Source of the DNA: Cyanobacteriota bacterium
GTDB taxonomy: Bacteria > Cyanobacteriota > Cyanobacteriia > PCC-6307 > Cyanobiaceae
Assembly (NCBI GenBank): GCA_046052125.1
Contig: JBJOMY010000005.1
Coordinates: 128,001-192,000 of the forward strand
DNA: 64,000 nt
Direction: 5' to 3'
Positions 4,156 through 45,044 of this stretch are shown one piece after another. Below the pieces are notes generated by a model. The model was given only the letters and a program-made list of their open reading frames with translations. It ran no database searches and had not been told where the DNA came from. Each line of letters opens with the position of its first letter. Positions within the stretch are counted from its first letter, which is position 1. The position numbers and the translations under genes are program-made.

Positions 4156-5040
4156 TCAGCCGTTGATGAGCGTCTCGAGGGCATCAGTCACATCCGGCTG
4201 GCGCATCAGTGATTCGCCCACGAGCACCGCATCGGCGCCAGCGCTCTGTACGCGGTCGAGGTCGTCGCGCGTGAACAGCCCGGATTCGCTCACCAGCAGA
4301 CACCCCTTGGCGCGGATCTGCTCGCCGTAGCGCTCCGTGAGGGCTTCGGTGGTGGCCAGATCTGTGTGGAAGGTGGCGAGATCGCGGTTGTTGATGCCGA
4401 TCAACTGCACGCCATCGAGGGTCAAGACACGCTCGAGCTCGGCAGCGTCATGCACCTCCACCAGCACGGTGAGGCCCAGGGCCCGAGCCACCTTGAGGAG
4501 GTAGGCCATGTCCGCATCGCTGAGGATGGCGGCAATCAGCAGCGCAGCATCGGCGCCAGCCGCCCGGGCCTGATACAGCTGATAGGGGCTCAGGATGAAG
4601 TCTTTGCAAAGCAGCGGCAGATCCACCACCTGGCGCACCTGCACCAGGACCTCGAAGCCGCCCTGGAAAAACTGTTTATCCGTGAGCACCGAGAGGCAGC
4701 TCGCCCCGCCGGCTGCGTAGCCGCGGGCAATCGCCTCAGGATCGAAATCCTCGCGGATCACCCCTTTGCTGGGGCTGGCTTTCTTCACCTCAGCGATCAC
4801 CGCCGGTTTGCGGCAGGCCGCTTTGAGTGCCGCAAGAAAATCGCGAGGGGCCGGGAGCTCAGCCACCTGCTTCTTGAGCTGATCGAGGCTGACGCGCTCG
4901 CGGGCGACGGTCACCTCACGATCCTTCTCCCACACGATCTTCTCGAGGATGTTGCGCGGTTCGCTCTCCTCGTGGGGAATGGCGTATTCGAGGTGCGCCA
5001 CCTTCACCTTGGGGTTGGGCGGCCGGCGACGGATCTCCAT
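4156..5040 (-). CDS. trpC: Indole-3-glycerol phosphate synthase
   Basis: [33 protein letters not shown]; cyanobacterial [10 protein letters not shown] start. Confidence 0.97.
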
Positions 5041-5044
5041 GGAT

Positions 5045-6487
5045 TCAGGCTCCCACGGCCATGGCGGCCTGCTTGTACGCCACTTCCACCACTTCGCTGA
5101 GGGTGGGGTGGGTGTGCACCTCATTGGCCAGTTGCTTCACGCTCTGGCGGCGGGCCACGGCGTTCGCGATCTCCTGAATCAGATCCGCCGCGTGCAGGCC
5201 ATAGATATGGGCCCCGAGCACCTCACCGGTGCTCTTGTTGAACAGCAGCTTCATCAGGCCATCGCTCTCGAGCTCGGCCAGGGCCTTGGAGTTGGCCTTG
5301 AAGTAGCTGCGCACACTGCCCAGTTCAAAGCCATCTTTGGCGGCCAGCTCCTTGGCATCGGCTTCACTCAGGCCCACCGAGCTGATCTCGGGGTGGGTGA
5401 AGGTGGCGGCCGGAATCGAGCGGTAATCGATGGAGCGGGGGTGACCCAGGATGTTGTCCACCGCCACGGTGCCCTGGGCAGCAGCGGTGTGGGCCAGCAT
5501 CATCTTTCCGGTTACGTCGCCCACAGCCCAGAGGTGGGGCACGGGAGCGCCGTTCACCAGCACCCGCAGCTGGTCGTCCACGGGGATGAAGCCGCGGTTG
5601 GTTTCGATGCCACAGGCCTCGAGGTTGAGGCCCTTGCTGCTGGGCACGCGGCCGGTGGCCACCAGCACCGCATCCACCTCGAGGGTTTCCACCGGCTCGC
5701 GGGTCTGCATGTCCACCAGTTCGATCTGAACGGGGGCACCAGGCTTGATCGATTTCGCCAGCACGCCGGAGCGGGCATCAATGTCGCGGCCGTCGATCAG
5801 GTTGCGGGCGGCGATCTTGGCGATATCGGGATCGAAGGTGGGCATCACCCGATCGAGGGCCTCGATCATCGTCACTTCACAGCCGAGGGCTGTGTACACA
5901 TCAGCGAACTCCAGGCCGATGTAGCCGCTGCCGATGATCGCCATCCAACGGGGCAGCCACTCCAGGCTCACGGCCTCATCGCTGGTGAACACGGTGCGGC
6001 CGTCGGTTTCGATGCCGGGCGGCACAAAGGGATCGGAACCGGTGGCGATGATCACGTCGCGGCCGGTGAGCACGCGATCCACACCATTGATCTCGCGCAC
6101 GCCCACCTTTTGGGGGCCTTCCAGGCGACCGGTGCCCCGGATGATCGTGACGCCGGCGCGCTCGAGGGTTTTGGTGAGGTTGCCGCGGATCGTGGCCACC
6201 AGCTGATTGGCGTGATCGGCGATCTTCTGGCGCTCGAAACGCACCGGCGCAGCATGGATGCCGAAGCCTTTGAGGTGTTCAGCATCGGCCAGCTCGCGCA
6301 CGCGGCCGCTGGCGGCCAGCAGAGCCTTGGAGGGCACGCAGCCGCGGTTCACGCAGGTGCCGCCCATATCGCGGCTTTCGATGATCGCGGTGCGTAGTCC
6401 GTGATCGGCAGCGTGCTTGGCGGCATCGAAGCCGCCGTAGCCGGCACCGATGACGATCACATCAAAATCGAAGCTGCCGTCGCTCAC
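5045..6487 (-). CDS. lpdA: Dihydrolipoamide dehydrogenase
   Basis: [30 protein letters not shown] start at 6487 inferred. Confidence 0.96.
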
Positions 6488-6522
6488 CGGATGCCTGCAC
6501 AGTTGGCGGGCATTCTCTCCTG

Positions 6523-7323
6523 TCAGGGCGCCGCGGTCGCGCTGCGCTGCTGCCGGCAACGCTCCAGCAGCAACGGGGCCGCTGCCACGGCCACATTCAG
6601 CGACTCCACCGCCGCGCTGTGGGGGATGGTGACGCGGTGCGTGGCCAGCTCCGCCAACTCCGGATGGAGACCAGCACCCTCATTGCCCATGAGCAGCACG
6701 GTGGGCTGGGTCCAGTCCAACTGCCAGTAGGGCTCGGCGCTGAGATCCACCACGGTGGCCACCACCTGCTGACCGGCTGAGCGGGCCCGCTGCAGCAGTG
6801 GCAGCAACGCCGAGCGATCGGGCTCGCGCAGCAGCGGCAGAGCCAAGGCAACACCGGCAGAAGCGCGCAGCACCTTGGGCTGGAGCGGATCAGCGCCGCC
6901 ACCGAGCCACACCTCGTCGACGCCGGCCGCCAGGGCGGTGCGCAACAGCGTGCCGAGATTGCCCGGATCCTGCAGCTGATCCAGCGCCAGCACGAACCGG
7001 CCCTGGCCCCGAGCTGCGGGCAATGCGTCGCGCGCCAGGGTCGCCACCACACCATCAGGGCTATCGGTGGTGGCCACCGCCGCCAACACCGCATCACCCA
7101 CCGGCTGGGGACGCCAAGCCGCTGCTGCGATCAGATCGCCGTGGCGCTCTAACCAGGCCTCTGTAGCGAGCAACTGCTCTGGCCTGTGGCCGAGGCGCAC
7201 CAACTCCTGGATCTGATGGGTTCCTTCAAGCAGCAACAGCCCCAGCTCGCGGCGCCCCTTGGGCTGATGCAAGCTGCGCAGCCGCGCCACCAGCGGATTG
7301 CGGCGGCTGGTGATCAGCTCCAT
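6523..7323 (-). CDS. TrmH/SpoU family RNA methyltransferase
   Basis: LQDPGNLGTLLRTA, MGNEGAG, ESLNVA. Confidence 0.92.
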   Translation of the reverse strand: MELITSRRNPLVARLRSLHQPKGRRELGLLLLEGTHQIQELVRLGHRPEQLLATEAWLERHGDLIAAAAWRPQPVGDAVLAAVATTDSPDGVVATLARDALPAARGQGRFVLALDQLQDPGNLGTLLRTALAAGVDEVWLGGGADPLQPKVLRASAGVALALPLLREPDRSALLPLLQRARSAGQQVVATVVDLSAEPYWQLDWTQPTVLLMGNEGAGLHPELAELATHRVTIPHSAAVESLNVAVAAAPLLLERCRQQRSATAAP

Positions 7324-32441: not shown

Positions 32442-34454
32442 TCAGGCCTGGTGCCAACCGCTGGCTGAACCGGCAGCCGGCCACCAGAGCTTCCCTTGTG
32501 CCAGGGCCGGGAGCTGGCGCTGCTCGGAAGGCCGTGGGCTGAAGCCCAACCAGAGCCCATCCACCCGCCGGGCAGCGGCCGCCTCATGCTCCCGCCAGCT
32601 CCACCACGACTGGCGATCGGGCAGCAGCCCCCAGCGCAACCGGCCAGCCGCGAGCACCAATGCCTGGCTGTCCGCCGCAACCGCCTCCACCCCCAGGCCA
32701 GCACTCGCCAACCGCTGGCCCTGGGCCAGGGCAGGACTGCCGTTCTGACCGGCTAACAGGCTGGGGGTGAGGGCCGCCCAGCAATCGGGTTGCTCTGGTG
32801 GCAGCGGATCCAGCAGAAGGGCCCAGTCGTAGCGGCGAATGCCCAGGCCCTGAGCCAGCTGGGCAGCGCGACTGCAGCTCAGGCCATCGCCCCGGCGACT
32901 GATCAGGGCAGATCGACCGGCGTGGCGGGCCACCAACCATTGGCGGCTGGCGTCGTGCACCAGCAACAGCTGATCGGCCAACAGCAGGTGCATCTGGGCC
33001 GCTGCCACCACCCCCAGCAACGCAGCTCCCCAACGGCGCCATCGCCGCGTAGACGGCAGCAACCAAGGCGCCAAGGCAACAGCGAGCAACAACGCGAGCA
33101 GCGGCGACAAACGTCCCAACGGGCACTCCGCCAGGGGTAACGCCGCCAGCTGGCGCACCAGCCACACAAACAACTGCGTGAGCGGCACCATCAGCCAACC
33201 CAGAGCCACGAGCAGCGGCGGGCACACCACAGCCGCAACCGCCATGGCCATGGCACCAAGGGTGAGCGGTGTGAGCAGGGGGGCCACCAGCAGATTCGAC
33301 GGCACAGCCCACAGCGGCAAAACGCCGAAGTGAAGGAGCTGCAGCGGCAGCGTCCAGAGCGAGGCGGCCACGGGCACCGCAAGGGCTCCTGCTGCCCAGG
33401 GCGGCCCCCAGCGCTGGAGCTGCTGCTCCAGAGGCCTGGCGCTGAGAATCAGGCCCGCCGTTGCCGCGGCGCTGAGCTGAAAGCCCACATCCAGCAACCA
33501 GGCGGGCCGGATCACCAACATCAGCAGCAGGCACAGCAGCATCACGGCGAGGGGACGACTGCAGCGCCCGCTCTCCTGCAACGCGAAGGCCACCGCCCCC
33601 ATCAACACCGCTCGAACCACCGACGGTTGCGGGCCGGCCAACAGCAGAAACCCCGCCATCGCCCCCAAGGCCAGGGCCCAGCGCAGGGGCGCCACCAGGC
33701 CCCGGGCCACCAGCATCACGGCCCCAAGCAACACCGTGAGGTGGTAGCCGCTGGCCGCCAGCGCATGGGACAAACCCGCCGCCCGGAACGCCTCCCGCAC
33801 CTCACTGGTCAATGGGCTCACCGCACTACCGAGCACCAAGGCCGACAGCACGCCACCGGCGTCTGGTCCGCCGATCGCTTGCAGAGCCGCGGCCATGCGG
33901 CGGCGCAGATCCGCCACTGGCGTGGCCTGGCGCTCCAGCACCCGCCAGCTCTCAACGCGCAGAGCGCTCCAGGCCTCCCGGCGCTGTAAGCGCTCGGCCG
34001 GCCCCGCCAGCAGCGGATGGGGAGCTGGCGGCAGCCGGCGCAACACACCCTGCAGCTGCAGCCGCCAGCCCTGGCGAAACGCCCCACAGGGACTGAACTG
34101 CAGTTCGCTGCGACCACCTGCCAGCGCAGCCAATGCCCGGCAACGCTGGCCCGAGGAATCGAGCTGGGGATCCTCGAGCAGCCGCGCCGTGACGGCGACG
34201 GGTTGCTCCATGGCGTCGGCTGGAATCCGCTGCACAGGATCGTTTGGGCCAGGCCGGGGTTGATTGAGCAGCCCCCAACCCCAGAGCAACAGCATCAGCA
34301 CCACCAGCGCGCAGCCCAGTCGTGGTTGGCGGCGAGCGAACCAGGCAACGCCACCTAGCAACAGGGCCAGCAAGCCGGCCTGGATCGGCCCAGCCAGTGG
34401 CAACACGCCGATGGCCAGCGCCAGCAGTGCACCGGCCAGAGCAAAGGCACCCAT
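32442..34454 (-). CDS. comEC: ComEC/Rec2 competence channel
   Basis: GLSHALAASGYH, PSVVRA, GFQLS motifs; multiple TMs. Confidence 0.92.
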   Translation of the reverse strand: MGAFALAGALLALAIGVLPLAGPIQAGLLALLLGGVAWFARRQPRLGCALVVLMLLLWGWGLLNQPRPGPNDPVQRIPADAMEQPVAVTARLLEDPQLDSSGQRCRALAALAGGRSELQFSPCGAFRQGWRLQLQGVLRRLPPAPHPLLAGPAERLQRREAWSALRVESWRVLERQATPVADLRRRMAAALQAIGGPDAGGVLSALVLGSAVSPLTSEVREAFRAAGLSHALAASGYHLTVLLGAVMLVARGLVAPLRWALALGAMAGFLLLAGPQPSVVRAVLMGAVAFALQESGRCSRPLAVMLLCLLLMLVIRPAWLLDVGFQLSAAATAGLILSARPLEQQLQRWGPPWAAGALAVPVAASLWTLPLQLLHFGVLPLWAVPSNLLVAPLLTPLTLGAMAMAVAAVVCPPLLVALGWLMVPLTQLFVWLVRQLAALPLAECPLGRLSPLLALLLAVALAPWLLPSTRRWRRWGAALLGVVAAAQMHLLLADQLLLVHDASRQWLVARHAGRSALISRRGDGLSCSRAAQLAQGLGIRRYDWALLLDPLPPEQPDCWAALTPSLLAGQNGSPALAQGQRLASAGLGVEAVAADSQALVLAAGRLRWGLLPDRQSWWSWREHEAAAARRVDGLWLGFSPRPSEQRQLPALAQGKLWWPAAGSASGWHQA

Positions 34455-41931: not shown

Positions 41932-43284
41932 TCAGGCTTGCCGCTTCAACACGGCAGCAAAGAAGCCATCGCCGCCACCATCCACTTCACCCGGCCACAG
42001 CTGCCAGCTCTCGATCAACTGCAGCTCGGGCTGATCGCCGAGGAGCGCATCGATCAGCTGCTGGTTTTCCCGTGGGTGCACGGTGCAGGTGGCGTAGACC
42101 AACCGACCTTGAGGCTTGAGCAAGGGGAGCAGCCCATCGAGCAGCTGGCGTTGCAACAACACCAGCTCATCGATCGCAGCCGGATCGATCCGCCAACGGG
42201 CATCGGCATGGCGGGCCAAGGTGCCAAGGCCCGAGCAAGGTGCATCCACCAGGATCCGATCCACGTGGCCCAACAACTCAGGCTGTTGGTTGGCCCAGGT
42301 GGTGGCATCGCCATGGCGCACATCAATGCAGTCGAGCCCCAGGCGCTCGGCGTTGCGGCTCACCCGCCGCAGCCGCGCTTCCCCGCGATCAAGGGCCAGC
42401 ACGGTGCCCTGATCCCCCATCAGTTCAGCTAGGTGGGTGCTCTTGCCACCGGGGGCGGCGCAGGCATCCAGGATGCGCTCACCTGGCTGCGGATCCACCA
42501 GCGGCGCTATGCGCTGGGCGGCTCGATCCTGCACACACCAATGCCCCTCGCTGAACCCAGGTAACCGGCTGAGATCACCGCTGCGGCCCACCAGCGTGAG
42601 CCCCTGCGGCACGCCCTCAATTGGCCGTGCCTCCACCCCAGCGGCGGCCAGTGCGGCCTGCACCTCAGCCGGCGTGGACCGCAACCGATTCACCCGCAGA
42701 TCCAAACCAGGCGGTGTGTTGCACGCCTGAGCGAACGCCTCGGCCCGCTCCGGCGGCAACCACTGCAGCAGGTTGCCAGTGAGCCAATCGGGCAGGGAAT
42801 ACCGCACCCCCAGTGCCACCGCCGGATCGGCCGCTGCCTGCGGGGGGAGCGGCAGGGTGTCGCCAGCCTCGCGGCGGCGCAGGAAGGCCCGAAGCATGCC
42901 GTTGGCCACTGGTGCCAGCCGCGCCAAGCCCCCACGTTTGGCCAGCTCAACGGTGGTGCTCACCGCTGCGGAGGCGGGCACCCGATCGCTGGCAATCAGC
43001 TGATAGAGGCCCAGATGGAGCAACCAGCGCAGCTTGGGGGGCTGGCGCTCCGCCGGAACTTTTCCCAACTGATCCAGCCAGGCATCCAACAAACGGCGCT
43101 GCCGGATCGCGCCGTAGGCGAGCTCCGTGGCCAGCGCCCGATCCAGGGGCGCCAGTTGAACCTTCCCTAGCTCCCGCTCGAGGGCCCCATCGGCATAGGC
43201 CCCCGCTGCCACGGCCTGCAGCACCTGCCAAGCCAGCTGGCGCGGCGCAAGACCCCTCGGTTCAGCAACAGCAGAAACGCTCAA
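41932..43284 (-). CDS. rsmB: 16S rRNA m5C967 methyltransferase (Sun)
   Basis: NusB-like N-terminus, DACAAPGGK, DAPCSG, YATCT. Confidence 0.95.
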   Translation of the reverse strand: MSVSAVAEPRGLAPRQLAWQVLQAVAAGAYADGALERELGKVQLAPLDRALATELAYGAIRQRRLLDAWLDQLGKVPAERQPPKLRWLLHLGLYQLIASDRVPASAAVSTTVELAKRGGLARLAPVANGMLRAFLRRREAGDTLPLPPQAAADPAVALGVRYSLPDWLTGNLLQWLPPERAEAFAQACNTPPGLDLRVNRLRSTPAEVQAALAAAGVEARPIEGVPQGLTLVGRSGDLSRLPGFSEGHWCVQDRAAQRIAPLVDPQPGERILDACAAPGGKSTHLAELMGDQGTVLALDRGEARLRRVSRNAERLGLDCIDVRHGDATTWANQQPELLGHVDRILVDAPCSGLGTLARHADARWRIDPAAIDELVLLQRQLLDGLLPLLKPQGRLVYATCTVHPRENQQLIDALLGDQPELQLIESWQLWPGEVDGGGDGFFAAVLKRQA

Positions 43285-43353
43285 CAGGCCCGCAGCTCAG
43301 ACATTGCTTCACAACTAGCGCCCGGCGGCAGCCAGCGATAGCGAGCCAGCGGC
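43281..43353 (-). pseudogene. Displaced original 3' end of the ATL/MGMT gene
   Basis: Translates as PLARYRWLPPGASCEAMSELRAC*, matching PLARYRWLP of the ATL C-terminus; its TGA overlaps the rsmB TTG start. Confidence 0.75.
43325..43353. repeat. 29-bp direct repeat, left copy
   Basis: GCGGCAGCCAGCGATAGCGAGCCAGCGGC; 27/29 identical to 43964-43992. Confidence 0.92.
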
Positions 43354-43402
43354 GACGTTCTGAAACAGGGGTGGCATTTCACCAACAAAGCCAGCCAGCC
43401 CC

Positions 43403-43660
43403 ATGCCGATCGTGAGCCGCTTTCTTGGCATCACCATCATGATGTTCTACGCCGACCATCAACCGCGTCACTTTCATGCGCGGTACGGAGCTGCGGAAGT
43501 GTTGGTGGAGATCGACTCGGGCCTTGTGCACGGGGCTTTTCCGCCTCGAGCGCTGCGATTGGTTCTTGAATGGAGAAGCCTCCACCTCAGCGAACTCCAG
43601 GAGGATTGGCAGCGATGCCAGGACCAGGAACCCCTCATCCCGATCCCACCCCTGGAATGA
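43403..43660 (+). CDS. DUF4160 protein (HicA-like putative toxin)
   Basis: MPIVSRFLGITIMMFYADHQPRHFHARY, LVLEW...EL..DW, IPPLE. Confidence 0.9.
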   Translation: MPIVSRFLGITIMMFYADHQPRHFHARYGAAEVLVEIDSGLVHGAFPPRALRLVLEWRSLHLSELQEDWQRCQDQEPLIPIPPLE

Positions 43661-43980
43661 GCACACCATTGCGAATTGAGGCGGTCGAACACCTGGAAGG
43701 AACCAGGATCCGTGTGGCCTTCAGCAACGGGCGCAGCGGAGTGGCTGACCTGCAATGGCTTCTGACTGGGCCTCTCCTAGAGCCCCTCAAGCAGCCCGGA
43801 TACTTTGCAGGCTTGGAACTCAACGCAGAGCTGGGCACCATCACCTGGCCGAACGGAGCCGATTTGGCACCGGAAGCGATTTACTTCCAAGCCTTCCAGG
43901 ACGACCCATCGCTGCAGGAGACATTCCAGGCCTGGGGTTATCGCTCGGCAGCCAAATCGGGCTGCGGCAGCCAGCGATAA
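43657..43980 (+). CDS. DUF2442 protein (putative antitoxin)
   Basis: IRVAFSNG, LGTITWPNGADLAPE; ATGA overlap with the DUF4160 stop. Confidence 0.88.
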   Translation: MSTPLRIEAVEHLEGTRIRVAFSNGRSGVADLQWLLTGPLLEPLKQPGYFAGLELNAELGTITWPNGADLAPEAIYFQAFQDDPSLQETFQAWGYRSAAKSGCGSQR

Positions 43981-44276
43981 CGCGCCAGCGGCAACCGGCC
44001 TTCCGCATCCACGGGGATGCCTTCGGCCAACAGCAACTCCCGTTGGATCCAGTCGGATCCCTCACGGCTGAGGCTCATGCTGATGCGGCCTTGGGCGTTC
44101 ACCACCCGATGCCAGGGCACGTCCGTGGGCAGGGCAAGCCGGCGCAGGGCCCATCCCACCTGCCGCGCACAGCCGTAGGCACCGATCAGCTCGGCGATCT
44201 GGCCGTAGGTGGCGAGCTGACCCGGCGGGATCTGGTTCACCACCGCCCACACGCGCTGATCAAAGCTCGGCTCCAC
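43938..44276 (-). CDS. Alkyltransferase-like protein (MGMT family, PWHRV)
   Basis: IPPGQLATYGQIA, ARQVG, VPWHRVVN (Trp in place of the catalytic Cys). Confidence 0.93.
   Translation of the reverse strand: MEPSFDQRVWAVVNQIPPGQLATYGQIAELIGAYGCARQVGWALRRLALPTDVPWHRVVNAQGRISMSLSREGSDWIQRELLLAEGIPVDAEGRLPLARYRWLPQPDLAAER
43964..43992. repeat. 29-bp direct repeat, right copy
   Basis: GCGGCAGCCAGCGATAACGCGCCAGCGGC, inside the ATL 3' end. Confidence 0.92.
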
Positions 44277-44348
44277 GGGGCAACGCTATCGGCACGAAGC
44301 GGCAGATCCGGCGATCCAGGACGATGGGACTGAGGCCTGCGTTGATCG

Positions 44349-45044
44349 ATGCCCCTACTGCCCCGCCGCTTCGAACGACTCCAGGCCGTGCTGAACCGCC
44401 GCATGGGCGATCTCACGGTGGTGCTTGAAGCGGTGGACAAGCCCCACAACCTCTCGGCGATCCTGCGCACCTGCGATGCCGTGGGCGTGCTGGAAGCGCA
44501 TGTGGTGAGCCTGCCGGGACGGCCCCGCACCTTCAATAAAACCGCCAAGGGCAGCCAGAAGTGGGTGCCGCTGCATCCCCACCCGAGCATCGAGGAGTGC
44601 CTGAGCGGCTTGAAGGCGAAGGGCTTCCGCATCTATGGCACCCACCTGAGCGTGGATGCCCGCGACTACCGCGACTGCGACTTCACCGGCCCCAGCTGCT
44701 TCCTGATGGGGGCCGAGAAGTGGGGAATGAGCGATGAGGCGCTCGCGATGGTGGATCAACCGCTGTTCATCCCGATGACGGGCATGGTGCAGAGCCTCAA
44801 CGTGAGCGTGGCCGCCGCCACCCTGCTCTTTGAGGCGCTGCGCCAACGGGAGCGCGCGGGACTGGTTCCCAGCAACGGCGAAGGCGTTCCCGGCGGCGAG
44901 GAGGCCTACCGCAAGCTGCTGTTCGAGTGGGCCTACCCCCAGGTGGCCGACTGGTGCCGGCGACAAGGGCGCCCCTATCCGCCCCTCAGCGAAGAGGGCG
45001 AAATCACCGAGCAGCTGCCCCGCACCTTGAAACTTCGCTACTGA
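44349..45044 (+). CDS. trmH: tRNA (guanosine-18-2'-O)-methyltransferase
   Basis: KPHNLSAILRTCDAVG, MGAEKWG, IPMTGMVQSLNVSVA. Confidence 0.93.
   Translation: MPLLPRRFERLQAVLNRRMGDLTVVLEAVDKPHNLSAILRTCDAVGVLEAHVVSLPGRPRTFNKTAKGSQKWVPLHPHPSIEECLSGLKAKGFRIYGTHLSVDARDYRDCDFTGPSCFLMGAEKWGMSDEALAMVDQPLFIPMTGMVQSLNVSVAAATLLFEALRQRERAGLVPSNGEGVPGGEEAYRKLLFEWAYPQVADWCRRQGRPYPPLSEEGEITEQLPRTLKLRY

Follow-up and report, generated by a model that had tools for sequence, protein, structure and literature searches.

Layout of the ATL–rsmB locus

We analysed a window of 64,000 nt on contig JBJOMY010000005.1, part of a 99.96%-complete genome of 2.64 Mb, and all coordinates given below refer to this window. 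Within the last codons of an ATL gene, between the body of this gene and rsmB, the window carries a cassette of two small overlapping genes of the DUF4160 and DUF2442 families, a putative toxin–antitoxin (TA) pair, which is bracketed by two direct-repeat copies of ATL coding sequence (Table 1).

A repeat search placed the two copies 639 nt apart from start to start, with 29 of 32 positions identical. Their core of 29 nt (43325–43353 and 43964–43992) agrees at 27 of 29 positions, and the repeat can be extended by eye to up to 34 nt. On the minus strand, PLARYRWLP is read from both copies, and the two differences within the core, GCT/GCG (Ala) and CGC/CGT (Arg), are synonymous. The left copy continues in frame as PPGASCEAMSELRAC to a TGA stop at 43281–43283, which overlaps the TTG start of rsmB at 43284 (TTGA). 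Hence the old ATL tail, 14 residues in length, stands on the far side of the cassette and is still fused to the start of rsmB. The intact ATL gene ends in a new tail of 8 residues, QPDLAAER, which is the antisense of the cassette 3′ end, and the DUF2442 stop codon falls on one of the repeat mismatches (TAA at 43978–43980 in the right copy, TAG in the left). The original prediction, made from the letters of the window, had described the place and spacing of the repeat, its two synonymous mismatches, the in-frame continuation into the rsmB start, the QPDLAAER ending, and the position of the DUF2442 stop; each of these was found again at the same positions.

To score such repeats, the best direct repeat was taken between 180 nt around the first start and 210 nt around the second stop of a gene pair. 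The window locus reaches a flank score of 23, whereas the highest value among 198 mismatched flank pairs is 12, and the repeat is thus more than a product of chance. Moreover, we scanned the 2.64 Mb of the genome for pairs of direct repeats that are ≥22 nt long, ≥85% identical, and 250–3000 nt apart. Among the longer, higher-ranked candidates that were inspected, the ATL repeat is the sole one that brackets small accessory genes. The others traced to repeats within hsdS and dnaX, to paralogous phycobiliprotein genes, and to one paralogous locus present in three copies; several more were judged from their sequence to be ABC-transporter motifs. At three paralogous loci of this genome (G000; C1:172155–172726, C3:37889–38460, and C1:730225–730777), direct repeats of 22–28 nt lie 531–544 nt apart and enclose an open reading frame (ORF) of 146 residues beside a conserved ORF of 151 residues, forming a repeated three-gene module.

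Table 1. Features at the ATL–rsmB locus of the window, ordered by position.
Feature	Position	Strand	Remarks
rsmB (16S rRNA m5C methyltransferase)	41932..43284	-	Pfam Methyltr_RsmB-F E 3.8e-53, NusB E 2.3e-22
Displaced ATL tail PGASCEAMSELRAC*	43281..43324	-	Matches the ATL C-termini of empty sites; probably doubles as rsmB leader
Left repeat copy	43325..43356	.	Dead copy of the ATL codons (S)PLARYRWLP
Cassette leader, 46 nt	43357..43402	+	CTGAAACAG(G/C)GGTGGC in common with the G002 and G011 cassettes (alignment)
DUF4160 gene, 85 aa, putative DhiT-like toxin	43403..43660	+	PF13711 E 4.7e-17
DUF2442 gene, 107 aa, putative DhiA-like antitoxin	43657..43980	+	PF10387 E 3.3e-14
ATL gene	43938..44276	-	PF01035 E 2.2e-27, domain residues 5-87
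Right repeat copy	43964..43995	.	Live ATL codons (L)PLARYRWLP; DUF2442 stop codon inside
SpoU/TrmH-type methyltransferase gene	44349..45044	+	Pfam SpoU_methylase E 4.5e-35

The ATL protein comprises 112 residues with a DNA_binding_1 domain and without an N-terminal domain. It reads VPWHRVVN, which contains what we take to be the mark of ATL proteins, namely PWHRV replacing PCHRV, by which the active-site cysteine of the O6-alkylguanine transferase DNA-binding domain is substituted. The trmH-type gene is the conserved right-hand neighbour and adjoins ATL in most relatives; it served as a synteny anchor. Promoter and terminator scans of 43150–44400 found neither element. ARAGORN detected no tRNA pieces at the junctions, its lone call being located inside the rsmB gene of locus L021, where it was taken as spurious.

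The cassette resembles the DhiTA toxin–antitoxin pair

Between the repeat copies, the cassette measures 607 bp and consists of the leader, which holds an inverted-repeat arm at 43366–43377, and the two genes. These are adjacent on the same strand with the toxin gene first, and the DUF2442 start overlaps the DUF4160 stop as ATGA (43657–43660). The matches to PF13711 and PF10387 both exceed the curated cut-offs, and each is the single match to its family in the genome; hence no second copy of the cassette was found there.

Within DUF4160, the residues H19, P21, H23, F24, H25, and Y28 are invariant among 46 sequences. Its structure model (pLDDT 93.9) shows five strands and two helices, and a comparison with the PDB gave no clear relative. 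When both proteins were folded jointly with alignments of our own making, weak support for binding was obtained, with a score of 0.44 compared with 0.00 for the best control. This value was attained by 116 of 157 solved complexes and by 2 of 215 mismatched pairs; with a score no higher than 0.60, only 18 of the 157 solved complexes and both mismatched pairs attained it. The joint-fold runs agree in at least 93% of contacts, with a partner pLDDT of at least 78.

The same two families are the dhiTA toxin–antitoxin pair of Dickeya dadantii 3937 in table 1 of PMC8198452, and an account of Thermus thermophilus plasmids treats a DUF4160/DUF2442 pair as a TA-like stabiliser (PMC12724237). DUF4160 further appears in PMC12065111 as a TA toxin family and a predicted effector without structural relatives. 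The window pair shares with these systems both Pfam families, their order, and overlapping genes of ~85–110 codons. Unlike DhiTA and the Thermus pair, the DUF2442 proteins of the ATL site, that of the window included, carry an extra C-terminal extension of ~24 residues, which runs antisense into ATL on the other strand and is missing in 43 more distant aligned homologues. The end of this extension is ATL read backwards up to a stop codon. Judged by families, order, and overlap, the insert is very probably a type II TA cassette of the DhiTA kind that sits in dispensable last codons of ATL.

One site in the genus is empty or filled by three toxin–antitoxin families

The ATL locus was gathered from 38 Vulcanococcus genomes (freshwater picocyanobacteria), including the genome of the window itself (G000); six query proteins were mapped onto these loci, and cargo identities were checked by Pfam. 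The site between ATL and rsmB is empty at 26 of the 38 loci. A DUF4160–DUF2442 pair occupies it in six genomes (G000, G065, G002, G011, G019, and G025), an RHH+PIN pair in three (G030, G012, and G010, the PIN gene being partly deleted in G010), and a GNAT toxin with a TacA-type antitoxin in one (G061). The two remaining loci (L008 in G032, L031 in G035) contain ~200 bp of extra DNA, which begins with TCTGTACAGGCTGTAC directly after the ATL stop and may be a small repeat element.

The original prediction had foreseen an empty allele with one repeat copy and an ATL gene running into rsmB, and had proposed a search for different cargo at the same site. Both are present in the genus. In the six nearest empty genomes (G007, G017, G027, G021, G008, and G029), ATL ends in ...RYRWLPPGASCGATSxxLPC* or a close variant, with a single repeat copy, a remnant-like tail, and a TGA overlapping the rsmB TTG. 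The remaining empty genomes have ATL tails that are shorter or different. The RHH+PIN and GNAT+TacA pairs represent the different cargo.

All three TA cargos are convergent with ATL, the new ATL tail being antisense of the cargo in each case, and every one leaves a remnant of the old ATL tail beside rsmB. ATL is broken directly after RYRWLP; in the RHH+PIN loci, the break lies 4 codons further on. At the RHH+PIN and GNAT+TacA loci, the remnants (PLP... and ...GASCG) rest on protein-level likeness to the empty-site tails. The best flank-repeat scores of these two cargos, 10 and 9, are within the null range, and we claim no duplication for them. The window-type and G002-type cassettes do not share exact junctions, which differ in position by several nucleotides.

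Every insert is found just upstream of a conserved motif and downstream of the ATL Pfam domain. This motif, GGCGCTAGTTGTGGAGCA (43305–43321 in the window), occurs once in the genome and is conserved in 16 of the 16 empty sites printed, whatever the ATL reading frame; in some genomes it contains the ATL stop and lies at or just before the rsmB start. It is probably the leader and start region of rsmB. As a dispersed regulatory site, the motif GCGCTAGTTGTGGAGCA was rejected, since the genome holds no further copy even when up to 3 mismatches are allowed, other matches being at chance level.

The other side of ATL collects TA modules as well. In four genomes (G030, G012, G010, and G016; loci L021, L028, L030, and L025), HEPN plus nucleotidyltransferase pairs and, in some genomes, AbrB-like plus PIN pairs lie between ATL and trmH. 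The rsmB–ATL–trmH stretch of this clade accumulates such modules. In another picocyanobacterial lineage (L245, L256, L244, L242, and L251), a phycobilisome-linker gene of 269 residues is convergent to ATL and, where the contig has both ends, sits between ATL and rsmB. Consequently, non-TA genes can fill the junction too.

History of the cassette in the genus

The window and G065 share ~92% nucleotide identity alike across rsmB, the cassette, ATL, and trmH. As cassette and flanks are equally diverged, the insert appears to have been inherited by descent in these two genomes. The DUF2442 genes of G002 and G011 are 52–68% identical to that of the window over most of the gene, with 78–82% in one 60-nt segment. 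Their flanks are mostly 70–93% identical.

On a tree of rsmB and trmH, the cassette state requires at least four changes, three of which are forced by well-supported branches. All carriers of DUF4160–DUF2442 fall into one clade of 15 genomes, together with eight empty genomes and the GNAT carrier, and the three RHH+PIN carriers form one clade.

Flank repeats at toxin–antitoxin loci of many phyla

We asked how common such repeats are in 80 DUF4160 loci on contigs from one genome per species in many phyla; the gene pair and enough flank could be defined in 66. A flank score of at least 13 was reached by 12 of these 66 loci and a score of at least 18 by 10. When the scoring window was shifted by 900–1700 nt at the same loci, the corresponding counts were 10/340 and 4/340 (Fisher p = 2e-5 and 4e-6, respectively), and none of the 198 mismatched flank pairs reached 13. 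The 12 positive loci amount to ~9 independent events, because two represent the same Vulcanococcus ATL insertion and L119 and L120 share a layout. The repeats range from 13 to 135 nt and occur at 3′ ends as well as 5′ ends of host genes. The former include lpd (113 nt) and two other genes (124 and 89 nt), the latter an XdhC-like gene (135 nt) and a methylase-like gene (110 and 85 nt).

L119 and L120 are loci in metagenome-assembled genomes from two other phyla, in which two DUF2442-ending cassettes stand in tandem, each followed by its own copy of the methylase-like 5′ end. Such a tandem would be accretion at one target.

Could DUF4160 with its H-x-H-F-H...Y motif act as a small nuclease or recombinase and drive the insertion of the two-gene element to which it belongs, with DUF2442 as partner? 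Flank duplications do recur at DUF4160–DUF2442 loci across many phyla, the tandem copies of L119/L120 among them, and the His and Tyr residues are invariant in all 46 aligned sequences. Yet RelE/ParE pairs from 151 cyanobacterial genomes score at least 13 at 4 of 29 loci and at least 18 at 3 of 29, a rate similar to that of DUF4160 loci (4/29 vs 12/66, Fisher p = 0.77). The signature therefore appears general to TA cassettes, and DUF4160 is probably not its cause. Unrelated TA families also occupy the same ATL site, and the family acts as a TA pair in the accounts given by PMC8198452 and PMC12724237. Taken together, self-mobilisation by DUF4160 is very improbable.

A second slot exists in Vulcanococcus at the convergent chlH–folP junction, where a different DUF4160–DUF2442 subfamily lies between 38-nt copies of the folP end (L036/L176–L178; G025, G015, and G019). 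The same junction is empty in G068 (L180), with gene ends 2 nt apart, and holds an ORF of 219 residues without a Pfam match in G018 and G064 (L200/L203). G068 was rejected as a clean one-copy empty folP site, as its junction is without 13 nt that are common to both G025 copies.

In locus L065 (G013:C96), a stretch at 4811–7122 has a low GC content (0.51–0.58 compared with ~0.68 in neighbouring core genes) and contains three stacked TA cassettes, namely a higA-like gene, mazEF, and DUF4160–DUF2442. They are separated by three repeats of ~100 nt with GCTAAC...GTTAGC-like ends, and the contig ends within the array. This looks like serial docking, whether in an integron-like manner or through successive insertions into a single target.

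Divergence between the repeat copies

The copies of three long repeats located in coding 3′ ends differ at 53 positions, 35 of which are third codon positions (p = 1e-6), and at L133, 12 of 15 differing codons are synonymous. This bias argues that the copies diverged as parts of working genes rather than by decay of a dead copy in place. Such divergence can have arisen in two ways: a diverged donor supplied one copy along with the cassette, or a foreign allele later took the place of the live neighbour gene.

The bias bears on the proposal that the duplication was made de novo, in a one-off capture at a staggered break under repair or through a microhomology template switch that copied ~30 nt of the target, with the site recurring because few places tolerate inserts. 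Under this proposal, long-repeat copies differing mostly at third codon positions are not expected from dead-copy decay, although later allele replacement could produce them, and no reason is given why TA and restriction–modification (RM) units in particular should be captured. It agrees with copies that are nearly identical in three lineages (29/32, 30/32, and 25/28) and with the microhomology-sized repeats that are all the other ATL-site cargos show. The insertion window, moreover, lies exactly between the end of the ATL domain and the conserved rsmB leader, and the chlH–folP slot likewise joins two gene ends 2 nt apart. On balance, we consider a de novo origin of the duplication unlikely.

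Metagenome contigs carry the empty junction

The original prediction had suggested read mapping as a way to detect the empty site. Three runs of freshwater metagenomes, taken from two other studies, supplied contigs that we aligned to 42900–44400. The summed contig depth is ~100–300 over the flanks and 7–122 (mostly 16–50) over 43359–43970, a depth that sums over mixed organisms and is no measure of allele frequency. In unitigs of the runs X4 (100 nt with 2 differences, depth 101.6) and X5, AGCGCCCG stands directly before 43964. This sequence is identical to the 8 nt immediately before the left copy (43317–43324), and its joining onto 43964 corresponds to the predicted empty junction, although the alignment tool itself called no joint.

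Relation to described insertions

Insertion with long target duplication was reportedly described for RM units by Nobusato et al. in 2000 (Gene 259:99). The ATL-site cassette shares with this class a small addiction-type unit, the lack of a mobility gene, and repeats that are single-copy in an empty relative. Among described modes of insertion it is the closest class, here with TA cargo.

Furuta, Abe and Kobayashi (2010; PMC2853133) report RM units inserted with long, variable target duplications of >30 bp. Their cases, which come from several phyla and mostly from competent species, contain no other mobile-element genes, and the repeats often span start or stop sites; the mechanism is given as unknown, with DNA breakage by the enzyme suspected. 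In the passages on long target duplication, Mruk and Kobayashi (2013; PMC3874152) mention it for RM systems only, and among the articles and sections consulted we found no published description of long target duplication around TA cassettes. The repeats at TA loci are likewise long and variable, often span a gene start or stop, and occur in several phyla. Unlike the RM cases, the cargo is a TA pair, and thus breakage by an RM enzyme does not carry over as a driver of insertion. The ATL repeat with its 29–34 nt is at or below the 30-bp cut-off of Furuta et al., the insert lies inside a coding region whose tail it swaps, and three TA families share one slot.

For enterobacteria, Fraikin et al. 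(2020; PMC7167474) list recurrent TA sites at relA–mazG, dinB–yafP, and folA–apaH (ccdO157), and state that insertion sites recur and that the mechanisms of TA integration are unelucidated. Similar to these sites, the ATL–rsmB junction places the pair between conserved genes that are undisturbed in strains without it, with different elements per site. In contrast, the target is duplicated here, and no duplication is mentioned in the account of the enterobacterial sites in PMC7167474.

A host process may join the cassette to the chromosome

Neither the cassette nor any ORF listed within the surrounding 5.5 kb (41–46.5 kb) encodes an integrase or transposase, as the original prediction had stated. 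Genome-wide, there is a single weak tyrosine-recombinase match (PF00589, 30.8 bits) on another contig, serine recombinases not having been searched. Genes for ComEC and DprA are present; the ComEC-type gene (33051–33818, minus strand) is located ~10 kb from the cassette, and dprA on contig C9.

Some integrative elements insert into the 3′ end of a tRNA or protein gene, whose own terminus is thereby displaced. The ATL locus resembles them in that its repeats come from the end of the target gene, a displaced remnant lies on the far side, and the insertion is reversible in principle. Unlike in such elements, there is no integrase, the original end of the gene is not restored, and the repeat length is not fixed. 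By analogy, the repeats could be the core of attL and attR, and the cassette a satellite that depends on a tyrosine or serine recombinase encoded elsewhere, or the remnant of a larger, decayed integrase island, of which the addictive TA pair would have been hardest to lose. Beyond the shared geometry, several cargos at one site are reminiscent of integrase hotspots, four genomes also have TA pairs stacked on the trmH side of ATL, and the three TA cassettes in G013 are split by ~100-nt repeats as if docked serially. This interpretation has to accommodate the lack of an integrase not only at the window locus but also in eight enlarged or rsmB-less ATL loci among 80 metagenome loci (ORFs listed, Pfam on three ORFs), the shifted junctions of window-type and G002-type cassettes, and a duplication length that varies from ~10 to 135 nt between events and among cargos at the ATL site. 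Since this length is not fixed, a transposase with a fixed stagger is unlikely as well. Further, Rfam (E ≤ 1, five loci) identified no known RNA, and no attC-like structure was found by the Rfam scan, for which no attC model was run. The distance between the conserved WGY codons and the ATL RYRWLP codons at the cassette 3′ end is ~33 nt, shorter than integron attC sites are known to be. Site-specific integration is therefore quite unlikely to account for the locus.

These observations suggest that cassette DNA becomes linked to the chromosome by a host process acting at short homology. As a tentative explanation, to which we assign somewhat less than an even chance, we propose Campbell-type host recombination at short homology, with the site being fixed by selection. 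In this mechanism, no enzyme of the cassette would act. The donor DNA would be a small circle that holds the cassette together with a short patch of the adjoining gene; such a circle could form, for example, when the two repeats recombine in a donor. One Campbell-type crossover with the chromosomal copy would then duplicate the patch. Which insertions survive would be set by TA addiction and by the need for an intact ATL core and rsmB leader, whereby the gap of ~15 nt would become a recurrent slot. Loss could proceed by recombination between the repeats or by replacement with an empty allele, and either route would restore the ATL–rsmB overlap. We favour Campbell-type recombination because it duplicates a patch exactly, is reversible via the repeats, needs nothing from the cargo, and fits repeats that span starts and stops. 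The original prediction had offered mobilisation in trans and short-homology recombination as alternatives; the latter appears to fit the data better.

Several points weigh against Campbell-type recombination. It leaves the first duplication unexplained. A length of 29–34 nt is near the minimum for RecA-type recombination, and the mismatched repeat is also at or below the 30-bp floor of Furuta et al. (2010). For RHH+PIN and GNAT+TacA, the flank repeats measure at most ~10 nt, at the upper edge of the null; being at chance level, they cannot provide a homology patch that explains the entry of these cargos, for which joining at microhomology, combined with selection for the one gap that tolerates an insert, is a simpler account. 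No circle, excision joint, or donor was seen in the contigs, which cannot show rare forms, and the empty-junction unitigs are short, come from mixed populations, and have only 8 diagnostic letters.

The RelE/ParE control is small, a 30th locus having had too little flank to be scored, and covers one class; two of its matches are one locus in two genomes, and some contain the HIP1 palindrome. The third-position bias of the long repeats can also arise from later replacement of the neighbour by a diverged allele. Indeed, the copies of the window itself suggest such a replacement: its ATL-side copy has CGTTAT, a form frequent among G007-type genomes, the ATL-side copy of G065 is identical to the window remnant copy over 30 shared nt, and the ATL protein of the window is 93% identical to that of the empty G007 compared with 87.5% to G065. 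Finally, the order of cassette divergence tracks the flank tree, and a single early gain with at least five clean losses after it, without recent mobility, accounts for the distribution as well as several gains do. Overall, the complete explanation, in which DhiTA identity and the recombination mechanism are taken jointly, has in our view an even chance of being correct.

Implications for the spread of toxin–antitoxin cassettes

How chromosomal TA pairs enter their sites is an acknowledged open question, as stated by Fraikin et al. (2020; PMC7167474). The ATL–rsmB locus offers a natural series within one genus, which comprises the empty site, a slot with three unrelated TA families, and flank repeats in varied states of decay. 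The case extends the described class by the insertion within a coding tail, the reuse of one slot by three TA families, and the enrichment of the signature around TA pairs in many phyla. TA pairs are thereby tied to a signature so far described for RM units. If TA cassettes show this signature, DNA cutting by the cargo is an unlikely cause, and a host process is indicated. Moreover, an insert in the last codons swaps the tail of a gene and splits the ATL–rsmB operon, so that annotation and expression of the neighbours differ between close relatives.

More speculatively, TA pairs, RM units, and other small selfish or defence genes might form a class of recombinase-free mobile cassettes, each with a portable homology arm from a neighbour gene and spliced in and out by the host as a small circle, the duplicated gene end serving as a host-made att site. 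We regard this extension as rather doubtful. If it is true, recombinase-free cassettes would explain both the spread of such units among related genomes and their pile-up at a few gene-end slots.

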